64,000 nt of DNA from Alphaproteobacteria bacterium (lineage in GTDB: Bacteria; Pseudomonadota; Alphaproteobacteria; JABAAW01), in the NCBI GenBank assembly GCA_965216625.1, contig OZ244186.1, forward strand, positions 1,795,912-1,859,911, given 5' to 3'. Shown here in pieces: positions 7,653-47,156 of this stretch. Position 1 is the stretch's first letter; each line of letters begins with the position of its first letter. Below the pieces are notes generated by a model. The model was not told where the DNA came from. It worked only from the letters and a program-made list of their open reading frames with translations, and ran no database searches. The position numbers and the translations under genes are program-made.

Positions 7653-9467
7653 ATGAGCACGGACAAGCCGAACGGAGCAGACGAGACGAACGCCTTTGCG
7701 CATTTGGTCGGTCGCTTGGGCAAGCCGCCGCCTTTCTCGGAGGGGTGGTTTCAGACTCTGTTGAAGGATACGGACGGGCTTCGTCGCCGTGCCATCTACT
7801 ACTCCTGCTTTGTCAATTTGACGGCTATTGCCGCACCGATTTTCACGCTGCAAGTCTACGATCGCGTCATTTTTCACGCAGGGATCGAGACGCTGAAAGC
7901 GCTTGTGATAGGAATCTTGATCGTCATATTTTTCGATTTTCTCATGCGCAAAGCGCGTGCGAACCTCTTTCGTGCTGTCTCGTTGAGAAACGACGTTTTG
8001 GTCGGGCACAAGATGTTTCGACACACGATGAACTTGCCTTTGCGCGAGCTAGAAAAGCGTCCGACGGGACAATGGATCGCCTTCTTCAACGACCTGGCAG
8101 CAGTGCGAAACCGTATGGGAGGACCGATGGCGGCGCAGTTCATCGACGTTCCTTTCTCGTTGATGTTTTTGGTCGTCATCTTTGTCGTCGCAACCCCGAT
8201 CGCTTGGATCCCCGTCGTCTCGGGGTTGATGTTTCTTATTCTTATTTGGCGCGCCGATGTTAGTGTCGCCGCGCGAGTAAGCAAGGAGCAAGAGCAGATC
8301 GTCAATCGCAACGGCTTGCTCAACGAGCTGCTGCATGCGCGCACGACGGTCAAGTCTCTCTCGCTCGCGCTGCCTTCCGAGACGCGCTGGGCAGAGACGC
8401 AAGGCTCGTTGATCGAAGAATCTGTCCTACGCGGGGCGGCTCACGACCACTATCAGACAATCAGCTACAGCATGACCCAGCTGACGACCATCGCGATGAC
8501 AAGCGTCGGCGCGTTGGCGATCGTCAATCAATCCATGACGATGGGCGCGTTGATCGCTGCAAATATGCTGGGAGGGCGCATGATCGCAAACTTGGGACAG
8601 ACCTTGAACTACTGGCGCGGTTATCAAACATATGTTGCGTCCAAAAAACGACTCAGCACCATTTTCGGAATCGATACGGAAAAGGTGCGCTCCGAAGTGG
8701 CGCAGGAAAATCCGCAGGGAAAAATCACTTTCTCAGACCTATCGTTTCGATACGAGGAAAACGCGCCGCTCGCGCTCGAAGAAGCTAGCGGAACCATAGG
8801 ACCAGGAGGATTCTATGTGCTGGTCGGCGCAAACGGCAGCGGCAAGAGCACCCTCATGAAGCTGCTGCGCGGACTCTACAGACCCGAAAAGGGAGTCGTC
8901 ATGCTCGACGATAGAGACATTCGCCAATTCACCAATCAGGAGATCGCTCGATGGATCGGATACATGCCGCAGGACGCAACCCTGTTCAGCGGCACGCTGC
9001 ATTCCAACATCATCTTCGGCGCAGAGCAGCACAACGACGAGGCTATTTTGGAATCGACGAAATACGCGAACTGCCACCATATCATCACGAAGTTTCCGGC
9101 AGGCTACGAGACGCCCGTCGGCGAGGGGGGAGCCAACATCTCGCCGGGGTTGCGACAGAAGATATGCCTTGCGCGACTTTATTTGCGGCAGCCCAGCCTT
9201 GTCTTTCTCGACGAGCCGACCAACCACCTTGACCAGCAGGGTGTCATCGATTTGGCGAGCTCGTTGAAACTTCTCGCCAAGACGAAGACGGTGCTTGTGA
9301 TTTCCCACAATCCCAGCTTGTTGCAACAATCCGACTATATTGTCGTGATGGAAGATGGACATGTGCGTCAGATCGCGCCGAAGGATGTGATCGCCAAGCA
9401 GGCTGCGGCGCAGGCGCAGAGCAAGAAGGCGGCGTTGCAGGCACCAGAAAAGAGCCAAGAAGCTTAA
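7653..9467 (+). CDS. Type I secretion system ABC transporter (PrtD/AprD-type, no C39 peptidase domain)
   Basis: An N-terminal six-transmembrane domain is followed by an ABC domain ('GANGSGKST', 'ISPGLRQKICLARL', 'LVFLDEPTNHLD'). It is adjacent to a HlyD-family gene. Confidence 0.9.
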   Translation: MSTDKPNGADETNAFAHLVGRLGKPPPFSEGWFQTLLKDTDGLRRRAIYYSCFVNLTAIAAPIFTLQVYDRVIFHAGIETLKALVIGILIVIFFDFLMRKARANLFRAVSLRNDVLVGHKMFRHTMNLPLRELEKRPTGQWIAFFNDLAAVRNRMGGPMAAQFIDVPFSLMFLVVIFVVATPIAWIPVVSGLMFLILIWRADVSVAARVSKEQEQIVNRNGLLNELLHARTTVKSLSLALPSETRWAETQGSLIEESVLRGAAHDHYQTISYSMTQLTTIAMTSVGALAIVNQSMTMGALIAANMLGGRMIANLGQTLNYWRGYQTYVASKKRLSTIFGIDTEKVRSEVAQENPQGKITFSDLSFRYEENAPLALEEASGTIGPGGFYVLVGANGSGKSTLMKLLRGLYRPEKGVVMLDDRDIRQFTNQEIARWIGYMPQDATLFSGTLHSNIIFGAEQHNDEAILESTKYANCHHIITKFPAGYETPVGEGGANISPGLRQKICLARLYLRQPSLVFLDEPTNHLDQQGVIDLASSLKLLAKTKTVLVISHNPSLLQQSDYIVVMEDGHVRQIAPKDVIAKQAAAQAQSKKAALQAPEKSQEA

Positions 9468-9500
9468 ACCTAACACGACACCTGAAGAGAGAAGAAAGCC

Positions 9501-10832
9501 ATGCCACTTGAGTTTATCCCGCACGACGAGGGGTTAGGGGACGAGGACATCAATCCTTTACAACGCCTTGTTTCCAAGTATCGGTGGCTGGAGCGCAATC
9601 GTTTCGCTTTTTTTGCGACGACTTTTATCATGGTTTTTTTCATTTGGGCGTGTTTTGCCAAGTTGGAGAAGTTTTCTATCGTGCCAGGCAGCGTTGTGCC
9701 GCAGGAGAAAACGCAGGTCATACAGCATTTGGAGGGAGGAATCATCGAGGACATCACCGTCAATATCGGCGATCAGGTAGAGAAGGGAGACTTGCTGTTT
9801 CGCATCAACTTGGCGGGCAGCCAACGCGAGGAGCAGCTGCAGGCGGAGCTCGACGGCTATATCTTGCGCAAGGCGCGAATCGAGGCTGCGATCGAGGGCG
9901 TGCCGCTCGCCTTGCCGGAGGAGGAGGTGGCGCGTCGTCCTGAGATCGCTGCTGCCGAGCGCGGTGCTTACTTGTCGGCGCGCAACCAACTTGACAGCGC
10001 GCTGCAAGTCCTTGATGCGCAGATAGAGCAGGAGCGAAGAAAAATCGGCGAAAACGAGGCACGACGCGATACTTTCAACTCTGACCTTGTCATACAAACG
10101 GAGAGTGCCAAGGTTAAAGAAGATTTGTTCAGGCAGGGGTTAGGCGCGCGGATCGAGTATTTGGAGGCAAAGGCGCGAGTAGAGCAGATCGAGGGGAGGC
10201 TCAAGGAGTTGGAGGAGGTTATTCTTGCGGCTAGGTCTGCTCTCGTTCAGGTGCAGGCGCGGCGCGAGGAGGTTTTGCGCGAGAATCAGGGTAGTTTATC
10301 GCGCGAGAAGGTTGCGACTGATAATGTTCTTGCGCAGGCACGCATTGAGTATCAGCGTGCGCTTGATGCTGCGGCGCGCACTGAGGTTGCTGCTCCTTTG
10401 CGAGGCATTGTAAAGCAGATTTACTTCAACACTATTGGAGGAGTTGTGCGACCGGGCGATCCTGTTATGGAGATTGTTCCTTCCAGCGAGAATCTTGTTG
10501 TTGAGGGCAGGTTGGCGCCGCATGAGCGGGGTTTTGTAAAAATTGATCAGGATGCGGTTGTAAAGATCACGGCGTATGATTTTTTGTTGTATGGGGGGTT
10601 GCGGGGCAAGGTTGAGCAGATTTCTGCGGACACTTTGACTGCTCCGGATGGGGCTACTTATTTTCGGGTTGTGATTCGCACGGATAGGACTTACTTGGGC
10701 GATCAGCCGGGCAATTTACCTATTTCGCCGGGCATGGAGGTTACGGCGGACATTCATACGGACAATCGGAGTGTTCTTTCTTATGTGTTGCGTCCTATTT
10801 TTCGGTTGAAGAATAGTGCGTTTCGCGAGTAG
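9501..10832 (+). CDS. Type I secretion membrane-fusion protein (HlyD family)
   Basis: One N-terminal transmembrane segment, a long coiled-coil and a C-terminal 'PGMEV' lipoyl/beta-barrel region are typical of HlyD. It lies immediately downstream of the T1SS ABC gene. Confidence 0.9.
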   Translation: MPLEFIPHDEGLGDEDINPLQRLVSKYRWLERNRFAFFATTFIMVFFIWACFAKLEKFSIVPGSVVPQEKTQVIQHLEGGIIEDITVNIGDQVEKGDLLFRINLAGSQREEQLQAELDGYILRKARIEAAIEGVPLALPEEEVARRPEIAAAERGAYLSARNQLDSALQVLDAQIEQERRKIGENEARRDTFNSDLVIQTESAKVKEDLFRQGLGARIEYLEAKARVEQIEGRLKELEEVILAARSALVQVQARREEVLRENQGSLSREKVATDNVLAQARIEYQRALDAAARTEVAAPLRGIVKQIYFNTIGGVVRPGDPVMEIVPSSENLVVEGRLAPHERGFVKIDQDAVVKITAYDFLLYGGLRGKVEQISADTLTAPDGATYFRVVIRTDRTYLGDQPGNLPISPGMEVTADIHTDNRSVLSYVLRPIFRLKNSAFRE

Positions 10833-11087
10833 TGCTTTGCGAATGAGTGACGGGACGCTCAATAATAAACGGGCGCAAAACATCGCGTGCGTAGCACGCG
10901 GGGAGCGCGAGGGAGTAATCCCTCGCAAAAGACCCCGCGTCAGCGGGAGGAATTTATCCCCCCGCGCAGTAGTGCGCTTTATCTACGCGCGTAGCGCGTA
11001 GCCTCTTATTCAAAAGCGCGTGGGGGGATAAATTCCCCTCGCAGAAACGCGCAAGCTGACTCTTAACACGGCAAGGCGGGTTTGTTA
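10833..11087. repeat. Mosaic hairpin-repeat array (family also found at eight other loci in this window)
   Basis: It contains modules 'gcgcgagggagtaatccctcgcaaaagaccccgcgtcagcgg' and 'gcgcgtagcgcgtagcctcttattcaaaagcg', which recur elsewhere in the window. Confidence 0.85.
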
Positions 11088-12380
11088 TTATTTATTTTGT
11101 TTGTTGGCTTCTATTATTTGTTCCCATTCTCTAGCGATTTTTTGCCCTGCCATGATTTGTTCTGTTGTTAATATTTTTTTAATATCATTTATCCCTTCCC
11201 TTGCTTTTTTATTTCCCTCCTTGGCAGCGAGTAGAACCAAAGCATAACTGGTAGGAATATCTTGTTTAACACCATAACCATTAACATACATGACAGATAA
11301 ATTACCGAGCGCATTAGCGTGTCCTTGTTCTGCTGCTTTATGATACCACTCGGCTGCCTTTTGATAATCTTCCAGAACGCCTTTTCCTCTTTCGTACATC
11401 ACGCCCAAATTGTATTGTGCGTCAGCTAATCCTTGCTCTGCTGCCTTACGATACCACTCTGCTGCTTTTTGGTAGTCTTCTAACACTCCTCTTCCTATTC
11501 TATAAAAATCACCTAATTTGTATTGCGCAAAAGCTAATCCTTGTTCAGCTGCCTTGCGATACCACACGACAGCTTGCTTGTCATCTTTCTTAACTTCTTT
11601 TCCTTGTTCATGTAGCCTACCTAAATTGAATTGTGCATTAGCATGACCTTGCTCTGCTGCCATACGAAACCACTCGACAGCTTTCCTATCATCTTGCTTA
11701 ATTTCTTTTCCTTTTGCATACGATACGCCCAAATTGAATTGCGCATTAGCATGACCTTGCTCTGCTGCCATACGAAACCACTCGACAGCTTTCCTATCAT
11801 CTTGCTTGATTCCTTTTCCTTTTGCATACGATACGCCCAAATTGAATTGCGCATTAGCATGACCTTGCTCTGCTGCTTTATGAAACCACTCTACAGCCTG
11901 TGTATAATCTTGCTTAACGCCTATTTTTTTTGCATAAGAAACTCCCAAATTATATTGCGCCCCAGCAAGTCCTTGTTCGGCTGCCTTAAGCCACCACTCG
12001 GCAGCTTGTTTATAATCTTGCTTAACGCCTTCGCCTGCCTCGTACATCAAACTTAAATTATACTGCGCAATAGCATTTCCTTGTTTTGCTGCTTTGCGAT
12101 ACCACTTAACAGCTTGTGTATAATCTTGTTTGAGACCTTTCCCTTCTTTATACATCAAACCTAAATAGATTTGCGCGTCAGCATATCCTTGTTTTGCCGC
12201 TTTACGGAATAGAGGAATGGCTTCTGTGTAGTTTTTCTTTTTGTAAAATTTTACTGCTTGCTGGGCAATTTTCTTTGCACCCTGCGCGTGTGCGTCAAGA
12301 GCGAGTGGTAGCGACAAAGGCAAGGCGAGGGCAAGAGTAGTAGCAAAAACTGCCATCCAACGAGGATACTTACGGGACAT
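11088..12380 (-). CDS. Secreted Sel1-like repeat (SLR/TPR-like) protein
   Basis: A Sec signal peptide (MSRKYPRWMAVFATTLALALPLSLPLALDAHA) is followed by about 11 tandem Sel1 motifs ('A.YNLG.MY..G.GV.QD...A..W..KAA.QG.A.AQ'). The GC content is lower than in neighbouring genes. The start was refined to M47 of ORF 11088..12518. Confidence 0.85.
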   Translation of the reverse strand: MSRKYPRWMAVFATTLALALPLSLPLALDAHAQGAKKIAQQAVKFYKKKNYTEAIPLFRKAAKQGYADAQIYLGLMYKEGKGLKQDYTQAVKWYRKAAKQGNAIAQYNLSLMYEAGEGVKQDYKQAAEWWLKAAEQGLAGAQYNLGVSYAKKIGVKQDYTQAVEWFHKAAEQGHANAQFNLGVSYAKGKGIKQDDRKAVEWFRMAAEQGHANAQFNLGVSYAKGKEIKQDDRKAVEWFRMAAEQGHANAQFNLGRLHEQGKEVKKDDKQAVVWYRKAAEQGLAFAQYKLGDFYRIGRGVLEDYQKAAEWYRKAAEQGLADAQYNLGVMYERGKGVLEDYQKAAEWYHKAAEQGHANALGNLSVMYVNGYGVKQDIPTSYALVLLAAKEGNKKAREGINDIKKILTTEQIMAGQKIAREWEQIIEANKQNK

Positions 12381-13307
12381 GGGAAGACTCCTATTTTTCT
12401 TTGTTGATAGGATAAGAGTAGTAAAAACTTCATGCCTTGTCAACAAAGCTTGTGTCTGCCTTTGCGATGCGCGCTCCTCATAAAGCGCAGGCGAGCAAAG
12501 GCAGACACACACAAGCACAACAGAATCGCCGTGCCATGTTACGAGTCAGTATTGCGCGAGGCAAGCCTCGCGCTTTGGCACAAGAGGCTACGCGCTACGC
12601 GCGTAGTTTTTTCAATCTCTAGGACGAAGAAAACATTGTCGCCCGCCGTGTTAAGAGTCAGCTTGCGTATTGCTTCGCAATACGCTTTTGAATAAGAGGC
12701 GCACTTCGTGCGATTCTTTTTGTCGCTATCTTCTAGGCAAAATTAAAGACGCTCTACCATGCTATGAGTCAGCTTGCGCGAGGCAAGCCTCGCGCTTTGG
12801 GACAAGAGGCTACGCGCTACGCGCGTAGTTTTTTCAATCTCTAAGACGAGGAAAACAGAATCGCTCTACCATGTTAAGAGTCAGCTTGCGCGTTTCTGCG
12901 AAACGCGCTTTTGAACAAGAGGCGCGCTACGCGCGATTCTTTTTGTCGCTATCTTCTAGGCAAAATTAAAGACGCTCTACCATGTTAAGAGTCAGCATTG
13001 CGCGAGGCAAGCCTCGCGCTTTGGGATAAGAGGCGCACTGCGTGCGATTCTTTTTGTCTATAGGGCGAGGAAAACATTGTCGCCGCGCCGTGTTAAGAGT
13101 CAGCTTGCGCGTTTCTGCGAAACGCGCTTTTGAATAAGAGGCTACACACTTTGCGCTTCGCGCAAAGTGTGTAGAAGGCGCTATCGCGCCCCGCTGACGC
13201 GGGGTCTTTTGCGAGGGATTACTCCCTCGCGCTCCCCGCGTGCTACGCACGCGATGTTTTGCATCCGTTTATTATTGCGATTCCCGTCATTCGTTCGCGA
13301 GCTCGTC
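12381..13307. repeat. Tandem array of about eight ~105-110-bp units, each a conserved scaffold plus a variable perfect hairpin
   Basis: The scaffold 'ccatgttaagagtcagcttgcg[hairpin]cttttgaa.aagaggc[hairpin]gattctttttgtcgctatcttctaggcaaaattaaagacgctcta' repeats. Hairpin cores vary between units but stay self-complementary, e.g. gcgcgaggcaagcctcgcgc, gcgtattgcttcgcaatacgc, gcgcgtttctgcgaaacgcgc and ctacacactttgcgcttcgcgcaaagtgtgtag. Confidence 0.9.
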
Positions 13308-16154: not shown

Positions 16155-16329
16155 CTCGTCGGCGAGGGGTCGGGCAGCCGTCATGGGAGGGGGGAGAGAG
16201 GTGCTGTGCTTGGGATCACAGAGGGGGGGGACAATCGTACGAGGGGGGGGCAACGGGGAGGTTGAAAAACTGAGGGAGTTATCATAACAACGAAGCTATT
16301 GTACTTTTTGGATTGCGTGTAAGCAAGCG

Positions 16330-16971
16330 GGCAAAATGGGGAGGCGCGCGTAGTTTTGACGGGCGCGAAAACGAACGCGCGCTTGCGCTCGTGCTTTTTA
16401 AAGGCATACGCTCGCGCAACAGACTTACTTTGTATGATGACGGACGCAAAACATCGCGTGCGTAGCAAACATCATGGACGCGCATTGCAAGCAACGCGCT
16501 ATGGGGGAGCGCGAGGGAGTAATCCCTCGCAAAAGACCCCGCGTCAGCGGGGGGAATTTATCCCCTCGCGCGCGCAAGCGCGCTTTTCTGCGCGTGAGCG
16601 TAGCGAAACGCGCAGCCTCTTATTCAAAAGCGTATTGCGAAGCAATACGCAAGCTGACTCGCAACATGGTACGGCGATTCTGTTTTCCTCGCCCTAGAGG
16701 CAAAATTAAAGACGCTGTGCCGTGTTACGAGTCAGCTCGGGGACAAATTCCCCTTGCGCGAGGCAAGCCTCGCGCTTTGGTACAAGAGGCTACGCGCTAC
16801 GCGCGTAGAAAAGCGCACTGCGTGCGCTCCGCTGACGCGGGGTCTTCGTGGGGGGAATTTATCCCCCCACACCCCCCGCGCACGCTGCGCGTGCGCATGT
16901 TTTGCATTCGTAAAAATTACCCGCGTCCCCCAATGTGCGCCAGTGCGCGTTCGTTTTTGCATCCGTCAAGA
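16330..16971. repeat. Mosaic hairpin-repeat array
   Basis: It carries the same scaffold and hairpin modules as 12381-13307, in both orientations. Apparent ORFs here (e.g. 16474..17061) are repeat artefacts. Confidence 0.85.
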
Positions 16972-19990: not shown

Positions 19991-20602
19991 GGGGGAAACG
20001 CTTATAGAGAAGGGAGAAACGAGGATTGCGCTTGAGTTACAATATGCCTATCTTTGCGCGCGGTTTCAAGGGGGCTTGCGTAGTTTAATTGACGGAACTT
20101 GCTATGGATAAACGGATGCAAAACAAACGTGCGGTTGCGCGATGTGGGGTGAGCGTGTTTGCCTCTGCTTGCTTGCGCTTTTTTGATTAATTTTAATAGG
20201 TAGCGGCAGTGTCCCAAAAAACGAGACTCGCGCTTTGACGAGTAAACGAGCGCACGCGAAGCGTGCGCGGGGGTGTGGGGAGGCTTTGCCCCCCCGCAAA
20301 AGACCCCGCGTCAGCGGAGCGCGTAAGCGCTTTTTTGATTAATTTTAACAGGTAGCGGTAGTGTCCCAAAAAACGGGACTCGCGCATTGACGAGTAAACG
20401 AGCGCACGCGAAGCGTGCGCTCGTTTACGCGTCAATGCGCGAGTCCCGTTTTTTGGGACACTGCCGCTACCTGTTAAAATTAATCAAAAAAGCGCAAGCA
20501 AGCAGAGGCAGACACGCTCAACCCACATCGCGCAAGCGCGCGCTCGTTTACTCGTCAATGCGCGAGTCCCGTTTTTTGGGACACTACCGCTATCTGTTAA
20601 AA
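19991..20602. repeat. Repeat complex with nested inverted repeats, including a ~168-bp near-perfect palindrome (20329-20494)
   Basis: The arms 'gcgcttttttgattaattttaacaggtagcggtagtgtcccaaaaaacgggactcgcgcattgacgagtaaacgagcgcacgcg' and its reverse complement flank a central 'aa' and carry only two mismatches. Half-copies flank the palindrome at 20160-20280 and 20500-20600. Confidence 0.9.
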
Positions 20603-22255
20603 TTAATCAACAGGTAGTAGTAGATTGCGTTCCTCAATGTCCGCAAACCTCACGCGCGGCAACTCCTCCCCCTCCTCCCCCGAAAGCCCCCGCGCATACC
20701 CCCCCTCAACCACAATGCCAAAACTCGGTACAACACACACCTCCCCACCACTCCAAAAAGAAGGCAACACCTCCCGCACACGCCACGGCAACTTCTCAAA
20801 CCGAGCAAACTCCCGCTCAAGTCGAACATCCTTTTTCATCGCAAGAGCTCGCCCAATACTACGGCGCAACCCCACAACCCCCGCACGCCCCAAAGCCTCG
20901 CAAGTCCAACCCACAAAAGAGACAGCGCAAGCAGAAGGAGTATCTCTGCGCGAAGAAATAGACGGAGAAATAGGCGAAGAGATAGAGATAAGAAAACGTC
21001 CGTCCCAAAGCCTTTCCCGCAACAAGCCATCCCCCATCGAAAGAACTTCGATGCGCAACGCCGAGCGCGTCGCAAAGAAAACATCCCCCCTAGCAAACAA
21101 CAAGCAACGACCGAGCGAAAAAACAGCAGATTCTTTTCTCTCCCTTTCCGCCTTACCCGCATCGCGCAGAAACTTTTCTAAACACTCTCGCCACACCCCG
21201 CCAACCCGTCGCACCTCCCTCGTGCGCACCCCCCTGCCTCCGACCGAGCGCGCCATATTCGCAAGCACCCTGAGCGCAACCCCCCCCTCCAACGCCAAGA
21301 ACGCCCCGCTCTCGACGCAAATGTAACCATCAGCATAACTATCAGCGTGCAAAAACAGATTCGAGCTCGCTTGCACCTGCATAAAATCTCGCACCGCCTT
21401 CTCCAACGCCTCCTCCTCCGTTTGCAGCGCAACACACCGCGCGAGCAAACTTGCCTGCTCCGCTTGCGACAAACCCGCGCAGATAGGACGCAAGCGGTTG
21501 CGCGCATAACACGGCTGTAAGTTCGACGGATCCTCCAACCACGCTACTCCTTTATCTTGTCCTCTGCCTTGTCTCGCACCAAGTCTCTTTTTTGGCTCTC
21601 TTTCTCGTAGCCATGTTTGCAGCGATGCCTTCGATGCTTGCAACAGAGGGCGCAACAACAATACCTCTCGACACTCCCCTTGTCCTCGTCCCCCTCCCTG
21701 CTTATGCGCTCGCACACGGCGAAATTCGCGCATGCCGCCGCGACCGCGCAACAACCCCGCCTCCTGCAGCATGTGCGTTTCGAGTTGGTCGTCGCGCGTA
21801 TGTCCCAACGCCAAACAGCCAACCTCGTTCTCCAAGCACCAGTCCAAAAACTTGCGCAAGCGAAACAGACGCATGTTCTGTTGCAGGTTTCCCCTGTACG
21901 AGCCCAAAGGCACCTCAGGCGCGAAAACAAACGCAGCAAGCCCGAAGTCGTCCTCTAGCCTCCGCTTCAAGGCTTCACACTCGCTTGTGCTTGACGCGCG
22001 TTGCCGATGGTCGCAGATCAACGCGGCGACAAAGCTGGCGGGATGTTGCGCTACCTGCTGCATCCAATCTTGGCACAACAACAGCAAGGCGAGCGAATCG
22101 CTTCCCCCCGAACAGGCAACGGCAAGCCGTCGCGGCACGCCAATCTGCAAGGGATTTTCCAACCCCTTCTGCAAACCCTTTTCAAAAACTTTCTCTAACG
22201 ATCGCGCAAGAATCTCCGACGGGGCTTGCTGAGAGGAGGAATGTTGGAACAGCAT
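20603..22255 (-). CDS. tilS: tRNA(Ile)-lysidine synthetase TilS
   Basis: The PP-loop 'LAVACSGGSDSLALL' is present and it sits upstream of ftsH, a conserved synteny. The N-terminus was trimmed to avoid overlap with cpoB, so the start is uncertain. Confidence 0.8.
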   Translation of the reverse strand: MLFQHSSSQQAPSEILARSLEKVFEKGLQKGLENPLQIGVPRRLAVACSGGSDSLALLLLCQDWMQQVAQHPASFVAALICDHRQRASSTSECEALKRRLEDDFGLAAFVFAPEVPLGSYRGNLQQNMRLFRLRKFLDWCLENEVGCLALGHTRDDQLETHMLQEAGLLRGRGGMREFRRVRAHKQGGGRGQGECREVLLLRPLLQASKASLQTWLREREPKKRLGARQGRGQDKGVAWLEDPSNLQPCYARNRLRPICAGLSQAEQASLLARCVALQTEEEALEKAVRDFMQVQASSNLFLHADSYADGYICVESGAFLALEGGVALRVLANMARSVGGRGVRTREVRRVGGVWRECLEKFLRDAGKAERERKESAVFSLGRCLLFARGDVFFATRSALRIEVLSMGDGLLRERLWDGRFLISISSPISPSISSRRDTPSACAVSFVGWTCEALGRAGVVGLRRSIGRALAMKKDVRLEREFARFEKLPWRVREVLPSFWSGGEVCVVPSFGIVVEGGYARGLSGEEGEELPRVRFADIEERNLLLPVD

Positions 22256-32587: not shown

Positions 32588-33706
32588 ATGGCTGCGAGTG
32601 ATGTTAAATTTGAACGATTCATTTTTGTCGATTGGAGCGCGAGTGCGAAGCCGACAAAAAATAAAAATTCTATTTGGATTGGCTGTTGTCAATCTGATGG
32701 CGAGGAGCGTTCTTTTAATGCAGACTTGACAGGTTATGTAGGGGGCAAGAAGATTGTTGATAATTGGAATAATATTTTAAGAAATTTTCAAAAAAAAGAA
32801 AAATTTCTTAAAAACTCTTTTGTTGCCAATCCTCCGACGCGTAAAGCAGCTTTAGATTTTATTAAACAAATTTTAGAACAAGACAAGAAAAAAACTTTAA
32901 TAGGATTCGATTTTGGATTTGGTTATCCGCATCAAGCATATGGCACTGAAGAAAAAACATTGGGAGGATGCTGGAAATGCTTATGGGAAAAATTAACCTC
33001 TCTTTACTCCGAAGACGATCAAGAGATAGATAACAAAGGTCGCCCTCACTATAAGTTGGTAGACCAATGGAATTCAGGGAAAAAAGGATTGTTTTTTTGG
33101 GGTAAGCCAAATAATATTAAAGGTTCTTTAGATAATGTAAAAACGGTTGAATGTGATGCTAAAGCACGACGAGAAGATGCCAAAGTTGACAATTTTCGTA
33201 TAACGGATAAACGCGTCAGGTGGTCGGGTGTTAAAAGTCTTTGGCAATTGTACGGCGCGGGTTCGGTTGGCAGTCAAACCTTGCTTGGCATTCCTTATGT
33301 AGAAGAATTAAGGCGATGTTTTGGTGAAAAGGTAAGGGTATGGCCGTTTGAAACAAACTTCGGAAAAAACCTTAAGGGTTTTAATATTTTAATTTGTGAG
33401 GTTCACTTTGCTGCTATTGGCAGAGTGCAAGAACGCATAGCGAGAAAAACAGATGCTCTTGAATGCCAGAGCGAAAACCATCAAATTCCGAAGGGTTACC
33501 CTAAAGACAGGATACAAGTTGAGGAGATGTGTCGTTTCTTTGCCGAAGAGGACAAGGATGGAAGTTTGCTACAAAAATTTTTAAAGGTAGATTGCTCTTG
33601 TGTCTCCAAAGATGATAGAATCAAAGCGCAAACAAAGGAAGGGTGGATACTCGGCGCGCCGCTCTGCCTGCAACCTTGTGATCGTCCTCATACAAAAAAG
33701 AATTGA
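32588..33706 (+). CDS. Hypothetical protein on a low-GC (~38%) island; possible RNase H-like fold
   Basis: It is a clean 372-aa ORF in a sharply AT-rich segment. 'FIFVDWSASAKP...SIWIGCC' and 'TLIGFDFGFGYP' resemble the h-h-h-D-x-S...G strand-turn pattern of RuvC/YqgF/DUF429-type RNase H-like proteins, but no confident family assignment could be made from sequence alone. Confidence 0.5.
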   Translation: MAASDVKFERFIFVDWSASAKPTKNKNSIWIGCCQSDGEERSFNADLTGYVGGKKIVDNWNNILRNFQKKEKFLKNSFVANPPTRKAALDFIKQILEQDKKKTLIGFDFGFGYPHQAYGTEEKTLGGCWKCLWEKLTSLYSEDDQEIDNKGRPHYKLVDQWNSGKKGLFFWGKPNNIKGSLDNVKTVECDAKARREDAKVDNFRITDKRVRWSGVKSLWQLYGAGSVGSQTLLGIPYVEELRRCFGEKVRVWPFETNFGKNLKGFNILICEVHFAAIGRVQERIARKTDALECQSENHQIPKGYPKDRIQVEEMCRFFAEEDKDGSLLQKFLKVDCSCVSKDDRIKAQTKEGWILGAPLCLQPCDRPHTKKN

Positions 33707-34273
33707 TAAAAAATAAAAACTTATGCTGTCGCGTGAGCGCGTGCCATTAAAAAGCACAAGCACAAGCGCGAACGCGACAGATATAAATGCGCTTCGTGCG
33801 ATTCTTTTTGTCGCTAGCTTCTAGGCAAAATTAAAAACGCTCTACCATGTTACGAGTCAGCTTGGGGATGAACTCCCCTTGCGCGAGGCAAAGCCTCGCG
33901 CTTTTGAACAAGAGGCGCGCTTCGCGCGATTCTTTTTGTCGCTAGCGCGAGTGAAAACATTGTCGCCCTACCATGCTACGAGTCAGCTTGCGCGTTTCTG
34001 CGAAACGCGCTTTTGAATAAGAGGCTACACACTTTGCGCTTCGCGCAAAGTGTGTAGAAGGCGCTATCGCGCCCCGCTGACGCGGGGTCTTTTGCGAGGG
34101 ATTACTCCCTCGCGCTCCCCGCGTGCTACGCACGCGATGTTTTGCGCCCGTTAATATACAAAGCGCGTGCCATTAAAAAGCACAAGCGCGAACACGACAG
34201 ACAAACAAAAAACGCAAGCAAAGGCAAACACGCACAAGCATAACCCCCGCAATTTTGCTAATATACCCCCATC
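33707..34273. repeat. Mosaic hairpin-repeat array
   Basis: It contains 'cttctaggcaaaattaaaaacgctctaccatgttacgagtcagcttg...' units and the 'ctacacactttgcgcttcgcgcaaagtgtgtag' and 'gcgagggattactccctcgc' modules. Confidence 0.85.
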
Positions 34274-35002
34274 ATGTCCCTAACCCACCCCATCTGCACC
34301 ATCCTCCGTCAAGACTACGCCGCCTTCCTCCACAACCTCCCCCCCTCCTCCGCCGACCTCCTCCTCACCGACCCCCCATACACCATCTCCCGCAAAACAG
34401 GCTTCCAAAAAGTCCGCCAAGGCGTAAAACGCTTCGCACTCTCCATGGACTTCGGCGCATGGGACAAAGAAAATATCAACCTCCATAACCTCTGCCAAGC
34501 CGCACATATAGCACTCCGTAAAGGAGGAACAGCAATCGTTTGGTACGACCTCTGGAAAATCTCCGACCTCAAAGACGCCATGAACAACGCAGGCTTCCGC
34601 ATGCTCCGTCTCATCATCTGGCAGAAAACAAATCCCGTCCCGCTCAATATGAAAAGAACCTACCTCTCCAACAGCCGCGAGATCGCCATCCTCGCCGTCA
34701 AAGGAGGAAAACCCACCTTCAACGACCAATACCACAACGGAATCTACAACCTCCCCATCCCAAGACACCTCGGCAACCGACAACACCCAACACAAAAACC
34801 CCTCTCCCTCTTTACCGAACTCATCGAAAAACACTCCAACAAAGGAGACCTCGTCATCGATCCATTCCTAGGATCAGGAACAACCGCAATCGCAAGCCTA
34901 CAAACAGGACGGAAATTTCAAGGCTGCGACATAAATAAAACCTATACCCAAATAGCCCAAAAAAGAGCCGAGCAATGCATACAAAATCTCAAATCTTTAT
35001 AG
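34274..35002 (+). CDS. Compact beta-class DNA N6-adenine (amino) methyltransferase, apparently an orphan
   Basis: Motif IV 'LLLTDPPY' precedes motif I 'VIDPFLGSGTTAIAS', which is the beta-class order. At 242 aa it lacks the CcrM C-terminal domain. Its coding strand is CA-rich and G-poor, unlike its neighbours. Confidence 0.85.
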   Translation: MSLTHPICTILRQDYAAFLHNLPPSSADLLLTDPPYTISRKTGFQKVRQGVKRFALSMDFGAWDKENINLHNLCQAAHIALRKGGTAIVWYDLWKISDLKDAMNNAGFRMLRLIIWQKTNPVPLNMKRTYLSNSREIAILAVKGGKPTFNDQYHNGIYNLPIPRHLGNRQHPTQKPLSLFTELIEKHSNKGDLVIDPFLGSGTTAIASLQTGRKFQGCDINKTYTQIAQKRAEQCIQNLKSL

Positions 35003-35040: not shown

Positions 35041-35775
35041 ATGCCTCCTCCTCGCCCTACTCCCTTGCCTACTTCCTTGCCTACTTCCTTGCCCCCCTAT
35101 CCGCAAGAGTATCCCAAAGAGCCGTCCGCCATCACACGCCTCTCGTTTGCGCGCGTCCGTGAAATCTGTCCCGATCTGAAAACCCTCCCCGCCGCCCTGC
35201 AACCCCTCGCCGTGCGCATGATCCACGCCTGCGGCAATCCCGAAATCTTACCCCTCATCCGCGCCTCAAAAGACTTTCCGCAATCTATTCTCGACGCTCT
35301 CTCCGATACCCCCATCGAGAAAATTCCCGTCCTCTGCGACTCCGCCATGCTACGCATAGCCATAGAAAAATACGCGCCCCACGCACAATGCCTCATCCAC
35401 CACCCCTCGATCCAACAGCGCGCGAGCAAACACAACATCACAAAAGCCATGGCAGCCATCGACCAATACTGCGAAAACAACGATGCCCGACAAAATAATG
35501 TTGTAGCCAAAACGCTTTTTCTGTTCGGCGCAGCGCCAACAGCACTCCTGCGCCTGCTAGAGCATGTCCGAGAACAACGCTGCCCGAAACCCAAAGCCAT
35601 CTTCGCATTTCCCGTAGGATTTGTCTCGGCAGTCGAATCGAAACAAGCCCTGCTGGAAACGCTGGAACACTATCCCTTTCCCGCCATCACCCTGCTCGGC
35701 AGATTGGGAGGCAGCGCCATCGCCGCCGCCGCCTTCAACGCAACCTTTGAAAAACTCCAACATCGAAAAGCATGA
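35041..35775 (+). CDS. cobH: Precorrin-8X methylmutase (CobH/CbiC)
   Basis: 'ITRLSFARVREI...MIHACGNPEIL...IPVLCDSAMLRIAI...LFLFGAAPTALLRL...ITLLGRLGGSAIAAAAFNA' matches CobH. The Pro-rich N-terminal 25 aa may not be translated, so the start is uncertain. Confidence 0.8.
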   Translation: MPPPRPTPLPTSLPTSLPPYPQEYPKEPSAITRLSFARVREICPDLKTLPAALQPLAVRMIHACGNPEILPLIRASKDFPQSILDALSDTPIEKIPVLCDSAMLRIAIEKYAPHAQCLIHHPSIQQRASKHNITKAMAAIDQYCENNDARQNNVVAKTLFLFGAAPTALLRLLEHVREQRCPKPKAIFAFPVGFVSAVESKQALLETLEHYPFPAITLLGRLGGSAIAAAAFNATFEKLQHRKA

Positions 35776-37190
35776 CCGCAACAAACAAGACGCAAAACAC
35801 GACAGAAGAATTCACCAAGGGATTCACATGGCTCTCGGTTGTCGGCATCGGCGAGGAAGGCTTTGAGGCTCTACTGCCCGAAGCGCGCATGCTTTGCGAA
35901 GGAGCGCGACATATTCTCGGCGCGCCAAGACACATCGCAAGCCTGCCGCAAAACCTGCAAGCCCGTGCGGAGGCTTGGCTCAGTCCGTTTAGAGAAAACC
36001 TGACAAAACTCGACGCACTGCAAAAGACAACCCAAACAACCTCCGCTCTGCCTGCCTCTATTGTTCCGCCCGTCTGTGTTTTGGCGACGGGGGATCCTCT
36101 GAGTTATGGAGTGGGAGCGACCTTGCTCAGACGCTACGGCAAAACTTTGCGTATCGTGCCTTGGCGAGGCAGCTTTTCGCTTGCGGCGGCAGCGATGGGT
36201 TGGGCGCACGATTCTTTTTCTACGCTCTCGCTGCACGGGCGACCGCTCGGATTGCTGCAACGCAGCCTTGCGCCGTGCGCGCGCCTGCTCGTCATGCTTT
36301 CGGGTGCGAGCGACACGCAACGCATCGCCGAGCTGTTGTGCGCCGAAAATTTGGAGGCTTCTGCCATGACCATCTTGAGCAAGTTGGGAGGCTCCGACGA
36401 GTCGATCGTCCGCTCAACGGCGATGCGTCTGCGCGTCGGGCTTGCGCAAGGCGAGCGTTCCGATCTTGCTTCCGATCTTTTTTCTGATCTTGCGATTCTC
36501 GCCTTGGAGCTCCCCGCCAATCCTTCTGAGCAAGTTTCCGCCTCTCCCCGCGTCTTCGGACAGAGGCTCGCGTTGCCCGACGAGGCATTTGCTCACGACG
36601 GGCAGCTGACGAAGAGGCATGCGCGCGCGCTCACGCTGGCGGCACTTGTCGTACAGCGCGACGCCTTGTTGTGGGATTTGGGCGCGGGTGCGGGTTCGGT
36701 CGCCATCGAGTGGTGCTTGGCAGGAGGACGCGCTTGCGCCGTCGAGCGCGATGCGCGTCGCGTTGCACTCATCGAAAAAAACCGCGCGCGCTTCGCCCTC
36801 GAAGACCGCTTAGAGATTGTCCATGCAACCGCACAAAAATTTGTTCAAAAATTAGTGCGAGAATTCATAAAAGAGTTCGCCCTTCGCGCTGCAGAATTGC
36901 AAGAAAAAAAGAATAGGGAGAGAAAGGAAATAGCCCCGCGCCCGCAAGCGATCTTCATCGGGGGTGGGCTCAACAAGATTTTGTTGGAGCAACTGCTTAT
37001 TCTGCTCTCGCCAAAGGGCAGAATTGTTGCCAACGCCGTCTCGCTTGCGGGGGAAGGCGTGTTGCTTGAGGCATACCGAAAGTACGGCGGCGAGCTTGTG
37101 CGCATCGCCATCGCTCAGGCGCAACCGCTGGGAGAGACGCAAGCCTTCTCGCCGCAGCGATGCGTCACGCAGTATGTTCTTGGTGCCTGA
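35772..37190 (+). CDS. cobL: Precorrin-6Y C5,15-methyltransferase (decarboxylating) CobL (CbiE+CbiT fusion)
   Basis: An N-terminal CbiE tetrapyrrole-methylase fold ('LSVVGIGEEG') is followed by a C-terminal CbiT SAM-methyltransferase ('LWDLGAGAGSVAIE'). The ATGA overlap with cobH is consistent with translational coupling. Confidence 0.85.
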   Translation: MTATNKTQNTTEEFTKGFTWLSVVGIGEEGFEALLPEARMLCEGARHILGAPRHIASLPQNLQARAEAWLSPFRENLTKLDALQKTTQTTSALPASIVPPVCVLATGDPLSYGVGATLLRRYGKTLRIVPWRGSFSLAAAAMGWAHDSFSTLSLHGRPLGLLQRSLAPCARLLVMLSGASDTQRIAELLCAENLEASAMTILSKLGGSDESIVRSTAMRLRVGLAQGERSDLASDLFSDLAILALELPANPSEQVSASPRVFGQRLALPDEAFAHDGQLTKRHARALTLAALVVQRDALLWDLGAGAGSVAIEWCLAGGRACAVERDARRVALIEKNRARFALEDRLEIVHATAQKFVQKLVREFIKEFALRAAELQEKKNRERKEIAPRPQAIFIGGGLNKILLEQLLILLSPKGRIVANAVSLAGEGVLLEAYRKYGGELVRIAIAQAQPLGETQAFSPQRCVTQYVLGA

Positions 37191-42496: not shown

Positions 42497-42766
42497 CACT
42501 TTCGCGGATGAATGACGCGCTATCGCGCGTGGGGATGTGGGGATGTGCGGTAGTGTCCCAAAAAACGGGACTCGTATATTGACGAGTAAACGAACGCGCA
42601 CGCAGTGCGCGTGGGGGTGTGGGGGGGCTTTGCCCCCCCGCAAAAGACCCCGCGTCAGCGGAGCGCGTAAGCGCTTTATCTACCAAGACTAGCCGCCAAC
42701 CCCCTTGCCAAATTGTGCTAAAAAAGGCACACTGCAGAGTCTCAAGTACGACCCAAGAACTTCGCC
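42497..42766. repeat. Mosaic hairpin-repeat array (short)
   Basis: It contains 'gtagtgtcccaaaaaacgggactcg...gacgagtaaacg...' and 'caaaagaccccgcgtcagcggagcgcgtaagcgc' modules. Confidence 0.85.
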
Positions 42767-46647: not shown

Positions 46648-47156
46648 CTTGCGGCGATTTTTGTCTTGCGAACAAGACACGTGCTTTTTTGATTAATTTT
46701 AACAGGGAGCGGTAGTGTCCCAAAAAACGGGACTCGCGCATTGACGAGTAAACATGCGCACGCGAAGCGTGCGCGGGAGCGCGAGGGAGTAATCCCTCGC
46801 AAAAGACCCCGCGTCAGCGGGGCGCGATAGCGCCTTCTACGCGCGGAGCGCGTAGCCTCTTATTCAAAAGCGCAAGGCAATAGCATGGGGACGCATACGG
46901 CAAGCCGTATGCTATGGCCTCGCGCAAGGGGAGTTCATCCCCAAACTGCCTCGTAACATGTTGGGGATGAACTCCCCGCAGGGCTATTCGAGTTTTCCTC
47001 GCTAGAGTAGCAACAAGGAGAGGAGTACCATGAGAATTAAAGACTCCTCTCCCTGTGCCTTCTGTGATTGTGTTTTCCTCGCCCTAGCAAAGCAAGGGGA
47101 GTTCATCCCCAAGGGAAATTTATCCCCAAGGGGAGTTCATCCCCCTGTGTCTGCCT
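46648..47156. repeat. Mosaic hairpin-repeat array
   Basis: It carries one arm of the 20329-20494 palindrome family, the 'gcgcgagggagtaatccctcgc' module and 'ggggatgaactcccc'-type hairpins. Confidence 0.85.

Follow-up and report, generated by a model that had tools for sequence, protein, structure and literature searches.

There is still no agreed function or mode of spread for the mosaic intergenic repeats (REP/BIME, NIME and BOX, among others), although they were recognised decades ago. The BIMEs of E. coli combine two kinds of palindrome that alternate with specific short linkers and lie at operon boundaries, and a GTAG head is a feature of REPs. In general terms, BIMEs are composite intergenic arrays of REP palindromes (PMC3049150). 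REPs and REPINs are short GC-rich extragenic palindromes that occur at high density and are inherited vertically within a lineage (PMC3116915, PMC3337134). NIMEs are intergenic arrays of ~50-150-bp units in which dRS3 inverted repeats flank RS elements and GC-rich repeats are interspersed with AT-richer spacers; they occupy syntenic positions in related species yet are not of constant length or unit number, variable or surface genes (RTX-type ones included) lie beside them, and they appear to be recombination substrates (PMC1797815). BOX elements are built from boxA, variable tandem boxB and boxC, and unequal crossover gives strains different numbers of copies; the SPRITE repeat resembles a Rho-independent terminator and has possibly been co-opted as one, and BOX and SPRITE repeats nest (PMC3049150). 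Here we describe arrays of palindromic repeats in a 64,000-nt stretch of contig OZ244186.1 (the window) from an uncultured alphaproteobacterium, compared with ~150 kb of related loci including L106-L116. The stretch is a chromosomal housekeeping region (ftsH, tilS, pstSCA, cobalamin genes, uvrC, gor, leuS) whose closest named UvrC relatives are ~50% identical. On balance we lean towards a lineage-specific, non-coding mosaic intergenic repeat family of the NIME/BIME/BOX kind, remodelled by recombination at its conserved linkers.

At 12534-13142, Tandem Repeats Finder reported a period of 111 (5.5 copies, 66-70% matches) and a 223-bp super-period (2.7 copies, 86%), the latter indicating that two unit types alternate. 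Each unit consists, in order, of S1 (CCRTGTTAHGAGTCAGC), a hairpin H1, S2 (CTTTKGAAYAAGAGGC), a hairpin H2 and an AT-rich tail of type A or B. A first-pass annotation of this region had described about eight head-to-tail units; the tandem repeat is there, but a covariance model of S1-H1-S2, by which units were counted, finds six of them (Table 1). The scaffold and the six hairpin variants quoted in that annotation are all present exactly. In the whole window the model detects 16 full units and one partial unit, and the 18-mer GTTAAGAGTCAGCTTGCG occurs 11 times with up to three mismatches, against 0.06 expected. Each array terminates in a module that we call T, whose core T1 (CCGCTGACGCGGGGTCTT) is identical at 18/18 positions across all 10 copies and resembles a canonical intrinsic terminator.

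Modules of the family were found in nine of the ten intergenic gaps longer than 250 bp and cover 4,987 bp, or 7.8% of the window. The earlier estimate that such arrays fill essentially all of these gaps and about 7% of the sequence is therefore close, except that the gap at ~60645-61087 holds no family module. It had also placed the unit at eight other loci. Modules do occur in eight other gaps (10833-11087, 16254-16971, 19991-20602, 33707-34273, 42497-42766, 46648-47156, 52731-53365 and 54104-54597), but those at 19991-20602 and 42497-42766 contain accessory modules only, without an S1/S2 unit. The GC content is 70% in hairpins and 40% in linkers, and 56 perfect hairpins (stem of at least 6) were counted in the 4,987 bp of arrays, compared with 46 in the remaining 59,013 bp of the window. 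GANTC, which CcrM methylates in Alphaproteobacteria, is found 6.8 times per kb inside the arrays and 2.7 times per kb elsewhere, while over the entire window it is slightly depleted (193 observed, 244 expected). It stands at conserved positions of three modules: S1 (GAGTC), tail B (GATTC) and the accessory module X (GACTC). As arrays were recovered in two further independent assemblies, an assembly artefact is excluded.

The arrays resemble NIMEs in their GC wave, in being syntenic with a changing number of units (window compared with L106, L110 and L111) in having variable neighbours, here Sel1, RTX and HNH genes, and in coinciding with the end points of recombination. A formal likeness to dRS3 is seen in the palindrome GGGGA-N5-TCCCC, with its conserved arms and variable centre. 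This palindrome is present in 10 copies against 0.04 expected, all of them within arrays (15 nt each, at 11024, 16551, 16739, 16852, 33864, 46928, 46963, 47096, 47130 and 52938). It has two centre types, each in both orientations, and some copies are nested in units or in an H1 loop beside TT/AA. The 20-bp dRS3 sequence ATTCCCNNNNNNNNGGGAAT (PMC1797815) gave no match in the window with up to one mismatch. The arrays differ from NIMEs in that the linkers are conserved and the palindromes exchangeable, in being polar with an invariant T module, in lacking sequence similarity and in their host, which is not Neisseria. With BIMEs they share composite tandem intergenic arrays of two palindrome kinds and specific short linkers, but here loops and units within one array have the same orientation, the REP/PU consensus as we know it is absent and no RAYT is seen. 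With BOX and SPRITE they have in common a modular build, tandem copy-number change, terminator-like repeats and nesting; they differ in that the sequences are unrelated, the host belongs to another phylum and the tandem module has two swappable hairpin sites. REPs and REPINs are matched in the high density of short GC-rich extragenic palindromes, but inverted doublets are lacking here, the palindrome sequence is not conserved and the sequence examined contains no RAYT.

The first-pass annotation saw no obvious REP/BIME, Correia or RPE in the sequence of the family, and this holds. Since the sequence tests for NIME, REP/REPIN and BIME failed, and since linkers are conserved and palindromes exchangeable, we regard the arrays as a new family of the mosaic-repeat type. 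Two other candidates were rejected. Integron attC sites do not fit, as the nearest partner in S2 of the S1 motif GTTAAGA/GTTACGA is a direct TAAGAG repeat and not an inverted one; in addition, the units have no open reading frames (ORFs) and the window has no integrase. An integration host factor (IHF) site was dismissed on sequence after a check by eye.

Across 19 aligned units, 99.4% of cells in the 9-bp H1 helix are paired and both partners have changed at five of the nine pairs, which none of 500 shuffles reached. This bears out the claim that stem sequences change while pairing is kept. The H1 variants fall into about five discrete cassettes: GCGCGAGGCAAGCCTCGCGC together with its AAAG-loop form, GCGTATTGCTTCGCAATACGC, GCGCGTTTCTGCGAAACGCGC, GCGCATTGCAATGCGC and a long branched form. 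For H2 there are about four, three of which (H2b, H2a and H2c) are nested extensions of the core CGCRC-TNC-GYGCG. At one H2 pair, G-C is replaced by A-T with one G.T and one A.C intermediate (reached by 7/500 shuffles). Independent stepwise covariation is rare, however, and the variation is mostly whole-cassette exchange between units, even at orthologous positions. The proposal of a selected structure therefore stands as regards pairing and loop constraint, but the variation consists mostly of discrete cassettes swapped wholesale. A few fixed palindrome variants, the outcome that had been set against that proposal, is mostly what we see, apart from the G-C to A-T change at the one H2 pair. 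Array stems are nearly all perfect Watson-Crick helices and G.U pairs are almost absent, which makes them a poor fit to an RNA family of such diversity. Comparison of G.T with A.C mismatches between strands yielded few mismatches, on both strands.

The loops are constrained in a different way. Read in unit orientation, the H2 triloops are T-N-C in 25/25 cases, and the middle base is free (A in nine, T in seven, G in six and C in three). On the complementary strand they read G-N-A closed by C-G, giving the motif GCGNAGC (for example at 12588-12606, 12700-12712 and 13189-13204). When all GCGNAGC/GCGNNAGC motifs of the arrays are considered, 65 of the 66 that can be oriented are carried by the strand complementary to the one in unit orientation. 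Mini-hairpin DNA of the GCGNAGC type melts at 70-76 °C as single-stranded DNA (ssDNA) and is much weaker as RNA, and such motifs serve at ssDNA replication origins and in phage N4 promoters (PMC13037366); the stability of the mini-hairpins depends on the closing pair (PMC3201870). Together, these results show a constraint on the hairpins to fold in single-stranded form: complementarity within the stem is maintained, and the triloops keep their two outer bases fixed and vary only at the central one. The T-N-C loops and the strand asymmetry suggest that the constraint acts on a single-stranded hairpin, probably of DNA, and the constrained form is probably ssDNA on the strand opposite to the orientation used in the first-pass annotation.

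The perfection of the stems could also be obtained if the arrays were neutral repeat debris, in which palindromy is a by-product of quasipalindrome correction through intramolecular template switching and structure is under no selection. Stems that are almost always perfectly Watson-Crick, whole arms that change together and the symmetric stem extension that nests H2b, H2a and H2c within each other would all be expected, and quasipalindromes are indeed perfected by template switching in E. coli (PMC7202029). Left unexplained are the 25/25 loops with invariant first and last bases and a free middle, the invariance of the S2 and S1 cores and of T1, and the retention of shared cassette types by two species with ~90% nucleotide identity. 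We consider this explanation very improbable.

The dynamics of the arrays were read from three assemblies, by setting the window against L106, L110 and L111. At 54149-54351 the window contains two units and L111, from the other strain, has a single hybrid one; 108 bp are lost in register, with a 61-nt overlap in S1-H1-S2. This difference is an in-register unequal crossover. A 6.3-kb segment carrying the RTX gene is absent from L111, and its ends fall exactly in two directly oriented units. The hlyD-epimerase interval keeps its 109-nt inverted T arms (94% complementary) in both strains, and their contents differ: the window has a Sel1 gene and six units, the other strain an unrelated 299-aa gene accompanied by one plus two units. 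Array 33789-34140 closes with a unit and a T module that are orthologous to L106 3285-3603, with hairpins exchanged: the scaffold of the orthologous unit is kept, and it bears H1c/H2c in the window compared with H1a and another cassette in L106. Similarly, H1b in the window corresponds to a c-like cassette in the orthologous unit of L110. In the L012 deletion, S2 is joined to the T module at a common CTACGC. These data demonstrate that homologous recombination, unequal crossing-over and gene conversion reshape the arrays through the homology of the conserved linkers, and that genes within or beside them are gained, lost or replaced. The polymorphism between strains anticipated in the first-pass annotation is thus confirmed, in the form of unit gain and loss, RTX presence or absence and Sel1 replacement. 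Because the same cassette types are found in both species, the cassette library predates the species split.

A unit with a nested GGGGAATTTATCCCC insert is found at three non-orthologous loci, which indicates that composites spread as composites. The composite of unit 10961-11071 is present at two non-orthologous loci in a related metagenome-assembled genome (MAG). Such observations could point to a REP/REPIN-like element moved by a RAYT (HUH Y1) or by another enzyme acting on ssDNA hairpins, which would recognise the GNA-capped hairpins and leave the arrays as insertion by-products. The short GC-rich intergenic hairpins would agree with this, and so would H2a and H2c, which start with CTAC and end with GTAG and thereby recall the REP GTAG head. 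It would also accommodate the nested-insert unit at its three loci, the tiny GGGGA-N5-TCCCC palindromes nested in units beside TT/AA and the strict strand asymmetry of the mini-hairpin motif, a motif that primases and N4 RNA polymerase recognise in ssDNA form (PMC13037366). Several results argue against it. No RAYT or Y1 transposase was found among the window ORFs checked or the genes called in L106-L116, where annotation with Pfam and NCBIfam gave no Y1_Tnp or other transposase; the RAYT or structure-specific enzyme proposed in the first-pass annotation was thus not recovered from these genes. Moreover, palindromes vary and linkers are conserved, the reverse of REPs; units stand head-to-tail and not as inverted doublets; the hlyD/epimerase insertion shows no target-site duplication; and the changes observed are in-register recombination. 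We therefore hold enzyme-driven movement to be decidedly unlikely.

Full units were found, among the loci compared, only in the species of the window and in a sister species. The former includes a second strain, ERZ25071253, with flanks 97-99% identical to the window; the latter is represented by the "Alphaproteobacteria bacterium" MAG CBDCGG01, at ~90% nucleotide identity. Relatives at 83-88% UvrC or HlyD identity have only isolated hairpin modules, T1 among them, and none of the modules was present in relatives at 80-81% HlyD identity (GC 47%) or at 65% UvrC identity. In those at 80-81% HlyD identity the hlyD-epimerase gap measures 13-43 bp, compared with 2.5 kb of arrays and gene in the window. 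A scan of genome contigs with a pattern of 15 specified bases returned nearly only chance matches, the two real loci belonging to one MAG. The gapped S1...S2 pattern gave seven chance matches and no family member in JGI metagenome contigs and nothing in viral contigs, and blastn with the array found nothing in plasmids and phages.

Protein coding by the array was rejected: each of the six frames contains 6-12 stops over 647 bp, and hairpin length variants shift the frame, so that the array is non-coding. The arrays could act at the RNA level, as tandem terminators, as stabilisers of mRNA 3' ends or as a multicopy small RNA (sRNA) whose linkers (AAGAGG/CCUCUU) would bind ribosome-binding sites. 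Arrays contain 56 of the 79 terminator-like sites of the window, and the 12381-13307 region alone has 13, compared with 1.5 expected. T1 forms a canonical GC stem followed by UCUUUU, and in the relative L112 a lone co-oriented T1 lies directly downstream of a DUF1674 gene. Unpaired linkers are conserved and stems variable, as in many sRNAs, and both A-type units (z -3.5) and the terminal module (z -6.4 to -8.4) fold far better than shuffled sequences. B-type units, on the other hand, do no better than shuffles (z -0.5 to -1.6).

Other results are difficult to reconcile with an RNA. No Rfam 15 family matched at gathering score anywhere in the window, and only weak hairpin-like chance matches appeared at E up to 10; no sigma-70-like promoter was found within the arrays, and the sigma-54-like TGGCAC is present in one unit only. 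The window has no tRNA genes. There are almost no G.U pairs and the few intermediates fall on both strands, the stable-type loops are on the strand without U-runs, orientation relative to genes is mixed (array orientation follows no significant rule with respect to upstream genes), and unit number and cassette content differ between strains that are 97-99% identical. The structured non-coding RNA family suggested in the first-pass annotation is accordingly disfavoured by the lack of Rfam match and promoter, the near-absence of G.U and a copy number unstable between near-identical strains. An RNA-level element strikes us as unlikely, although some terminator function is part of the explanation that we favour.

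In that explanation, a mosaic repeat family remodelled at its linkers, a small library of GC-rich, near-perfect palindromic cassettes is set in conserved AT-rich linkers, and each array is closed by an invariant terminator-like end module. Stable ssDNA hairpins would promote slippage and template switching, and thereby their own amplification and homogenisation. Such slippage and template switching, if they occur, would account for the amplification as well as for the perfect arms, and template-switch mutation of this kind is the reaction established in E. coli (PMC7202029). On the T-run strand, some modules, T1 above all, may also terminate transcription intrinsically or protect 3' ends at the edges of operons. 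The following points weigh against this explanation. The strand with the stable loops is opposite to the strand with the T-runs, which places the ssDNA and terminator readings in tension. All hairpin classes may share one ancestor, in which case the consistency of loop orientation rests on ~10-15 semi-independent classes and not on 66. Neither a target-site duplication nor any other clue to dispersal was found, the hlyD/epimerase insertion being without duplication. The enzyme survey covered the ~64-kb window and ~150 kb of related loci, so that a transposase elsewhere in the genome is possible. Finally, of the 10 window copies of T1, six are co-oriented with the upstream gene and four are not, with no clear rule.

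Table 1. Coordinates of repeat modules, arrays and associated genes in the window.
Feature	Coordinates	Strand	Remarks
T module, reversed orientation	10839-10947	-	left arm of 109-nt inverted repeat (94% complementary) around Sel1 gene
Single unit, H1 (cassette c) broken by nested GGGGATAAATTCCCC palindrome	10961-11071	-	covariance model, unit table
Sel1-repeat gene, low GC, within inverted arrays	11088-12380	-	unrelated 299-aa gene in related strain
Long imperfect hairpin gtgtctgcctttgc...gcaaaggcagacac	12440-12522		between Sel1 gene start and first unit; only weak hairpin-like matches to miRNA models
Six head-to-tail ~111-bp units	12534-13174	+	starts 12534, 12646, 12757, 12869, 12980, 13088; covariance-model E 7e-16 to 1e-14
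T module	13175-13298	+	right arm of 109-nt inverted repeat
Head-to-head composite: T(-), unit(-) 16575-16669, unit(+) 16720-16808, T(+)	16440-16905		
Module X, four copies; T1(-) at 20300-20317; ~103-nt near-perfect palindrome 20360-20462	20177-20602		no S1/S2 unit
Partial unit, full units 33845-33956 (nested GGGGATGAACTCCCC) and 33971-34057, then T(+)	33789-34140	+	
Module X and T1(-), downstream of uvrC	42553-42680	-	
Module X, T(-), one unit 46855-46961 with long branched H1	46690-47144	-	left boundary of RTX indel
RTX protein, 1,857 aa, 18 HemolysinCabind stretches	47157-52730	-	explains 27/54/81-bp tandem repeats 47795-52053
T(-) and three units(-), one partial	52849-53288	-	right boundary of RTX indel; left inverted array beside HNH gene
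HNH gene, low GC, McrA-like type IV restriction family, inverted arrays on both sides	53366-54103	+	
Tail, units 54149-54256 and 54257-54343, T(+)	54105-54410	+	

The T module at 13175-13298 contains, besides a small hairpin GGCGC-TATC-GCGCC, the invariant T1 hairpin CCCCGC-TGAC-GCGGGG followed by TCTTTT, then CGAGGGA-TTAC-TCCCTCG, and CGCGTGC-TAC-GCACGCG followed by ATGTTTTGC. A motif related to the long imperfect hairpin that precedes the first unit is found near 53195. Module X is a separate module of ~90 bp (TTTTTTGATTAATTTTAACAGGTAGCGGTAGTGTCCCAAAAAACGGGACTCGCG...), with six copies in the window (20177-20602, 42553-42612 and 46690-46775); at 20177-20602 it follows the pattern …GTGTCCCAAAAAACGGGACTCG…GCGCACGC-GAA-GCGTGCGC. 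One contig of the related strain (contig_6) terminates within the module X region. In the sister species, T1 is reversed in orientation in the gap orthologous to 42553-42680. In array 46690-47144, GGGGA-N5-TCCCC palindromes come after the unit, with a 17-bp tandem triplet at 47093-47144 among them.

Several accessory genes are associated with the arrays. The Sel1 gene, the 299-aa gene and the HNH gene each lie between inverted arrays, with unit heads toward the cargo and T modules outermost. Hairpin and T-run modules thus face outward on both sides, and transcripts running out of the cargo on either side would encounter them. With three or four instances, the association between arrays and accessory genes is suggestive. 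The Sel1 gene, the HNH gene and a 372-aa gene adjoining a methylase are located in low-GC stretches. A 108-bp tandem repeat at 11309-12206 (8.3 copies) is coding: it specifies the 36-aa Sel1 repeats in ORF 11088-12518 (476 aa), whose true start is probably at 12380. Shorter in-gene tandem repeats of 12 or 15 bp, encoding 4-5-aa protein repeats, are unusually common in this lineage (2708-2763, 20951-20986, 35056-35093, 36458-36493 and many in L107).

The RTX gene is absent from the 97%-identical strain and from the sister species; a type I secretion ABC/HlyD pair is encoded at 7653-10832. Strain ERZ25071253 also has the HNH gene, called there as a truncated protein of 178 aa, whereas the sister-species MAG lacks it. 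The gene was rejected as a nuclease tracking the arrays, as the McrA-like type IV restriction family is widespread in many phyla. At 16254-16971, relatives (L112 15082-15309, L113 14396-14596) have a small DUF1674 gene in the interval from an aminotransferase to an APH-like kinase gene; it is gone from the window and from L110, where a head-to-head array takes its place. A variable island at 32588-35002 encodes an N6_N4 DNA methylase and the functionally uncharacterised low-GC 372-aa protein, beside an array. In relatives (L107 1817-2602, L108 565-1981, L109 2399-3790) the methylase is accompanied by an IceA (NlaIII-like) domain, and the island is therefore probably a restriction-modification hotspot. 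Exact look-ups of the HNH and methylase proteins returned no record.

The arrays might even form a gene-shuffling platform. A structure-specific recombinase or primase-like enzyme would read the GNA-capped ssDNA mini-hairpins, the invariant T and the GGGGA-N5-TCCCC sites, and the Sel1, 299-aa, McrA-like HNH and RTX genes would be captured and exchanged between outward-facing arrays. We regard this as a long shot. If true, this would be an equivalent, in an alphaproteobacterium, of the dRS3/NIME system that has been hypothesised, or something loosely analogous to integron cassettes, with transcriptional insulation of the cargo built in.

The family is a legible one: its constrained positions (linker cores, stem pairing and the loop G and A) can be read directly, events are resolved to the base and relatives provide clean empty sites. 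The ssDNA mini-hairpin reading, if true, would tie a well-studied biophysical motif to the dynamics of bacterial repeats. In this poorly known alphaproteobacterial lineage, the arrays break assemblies and mark hotspots where gene content varies.

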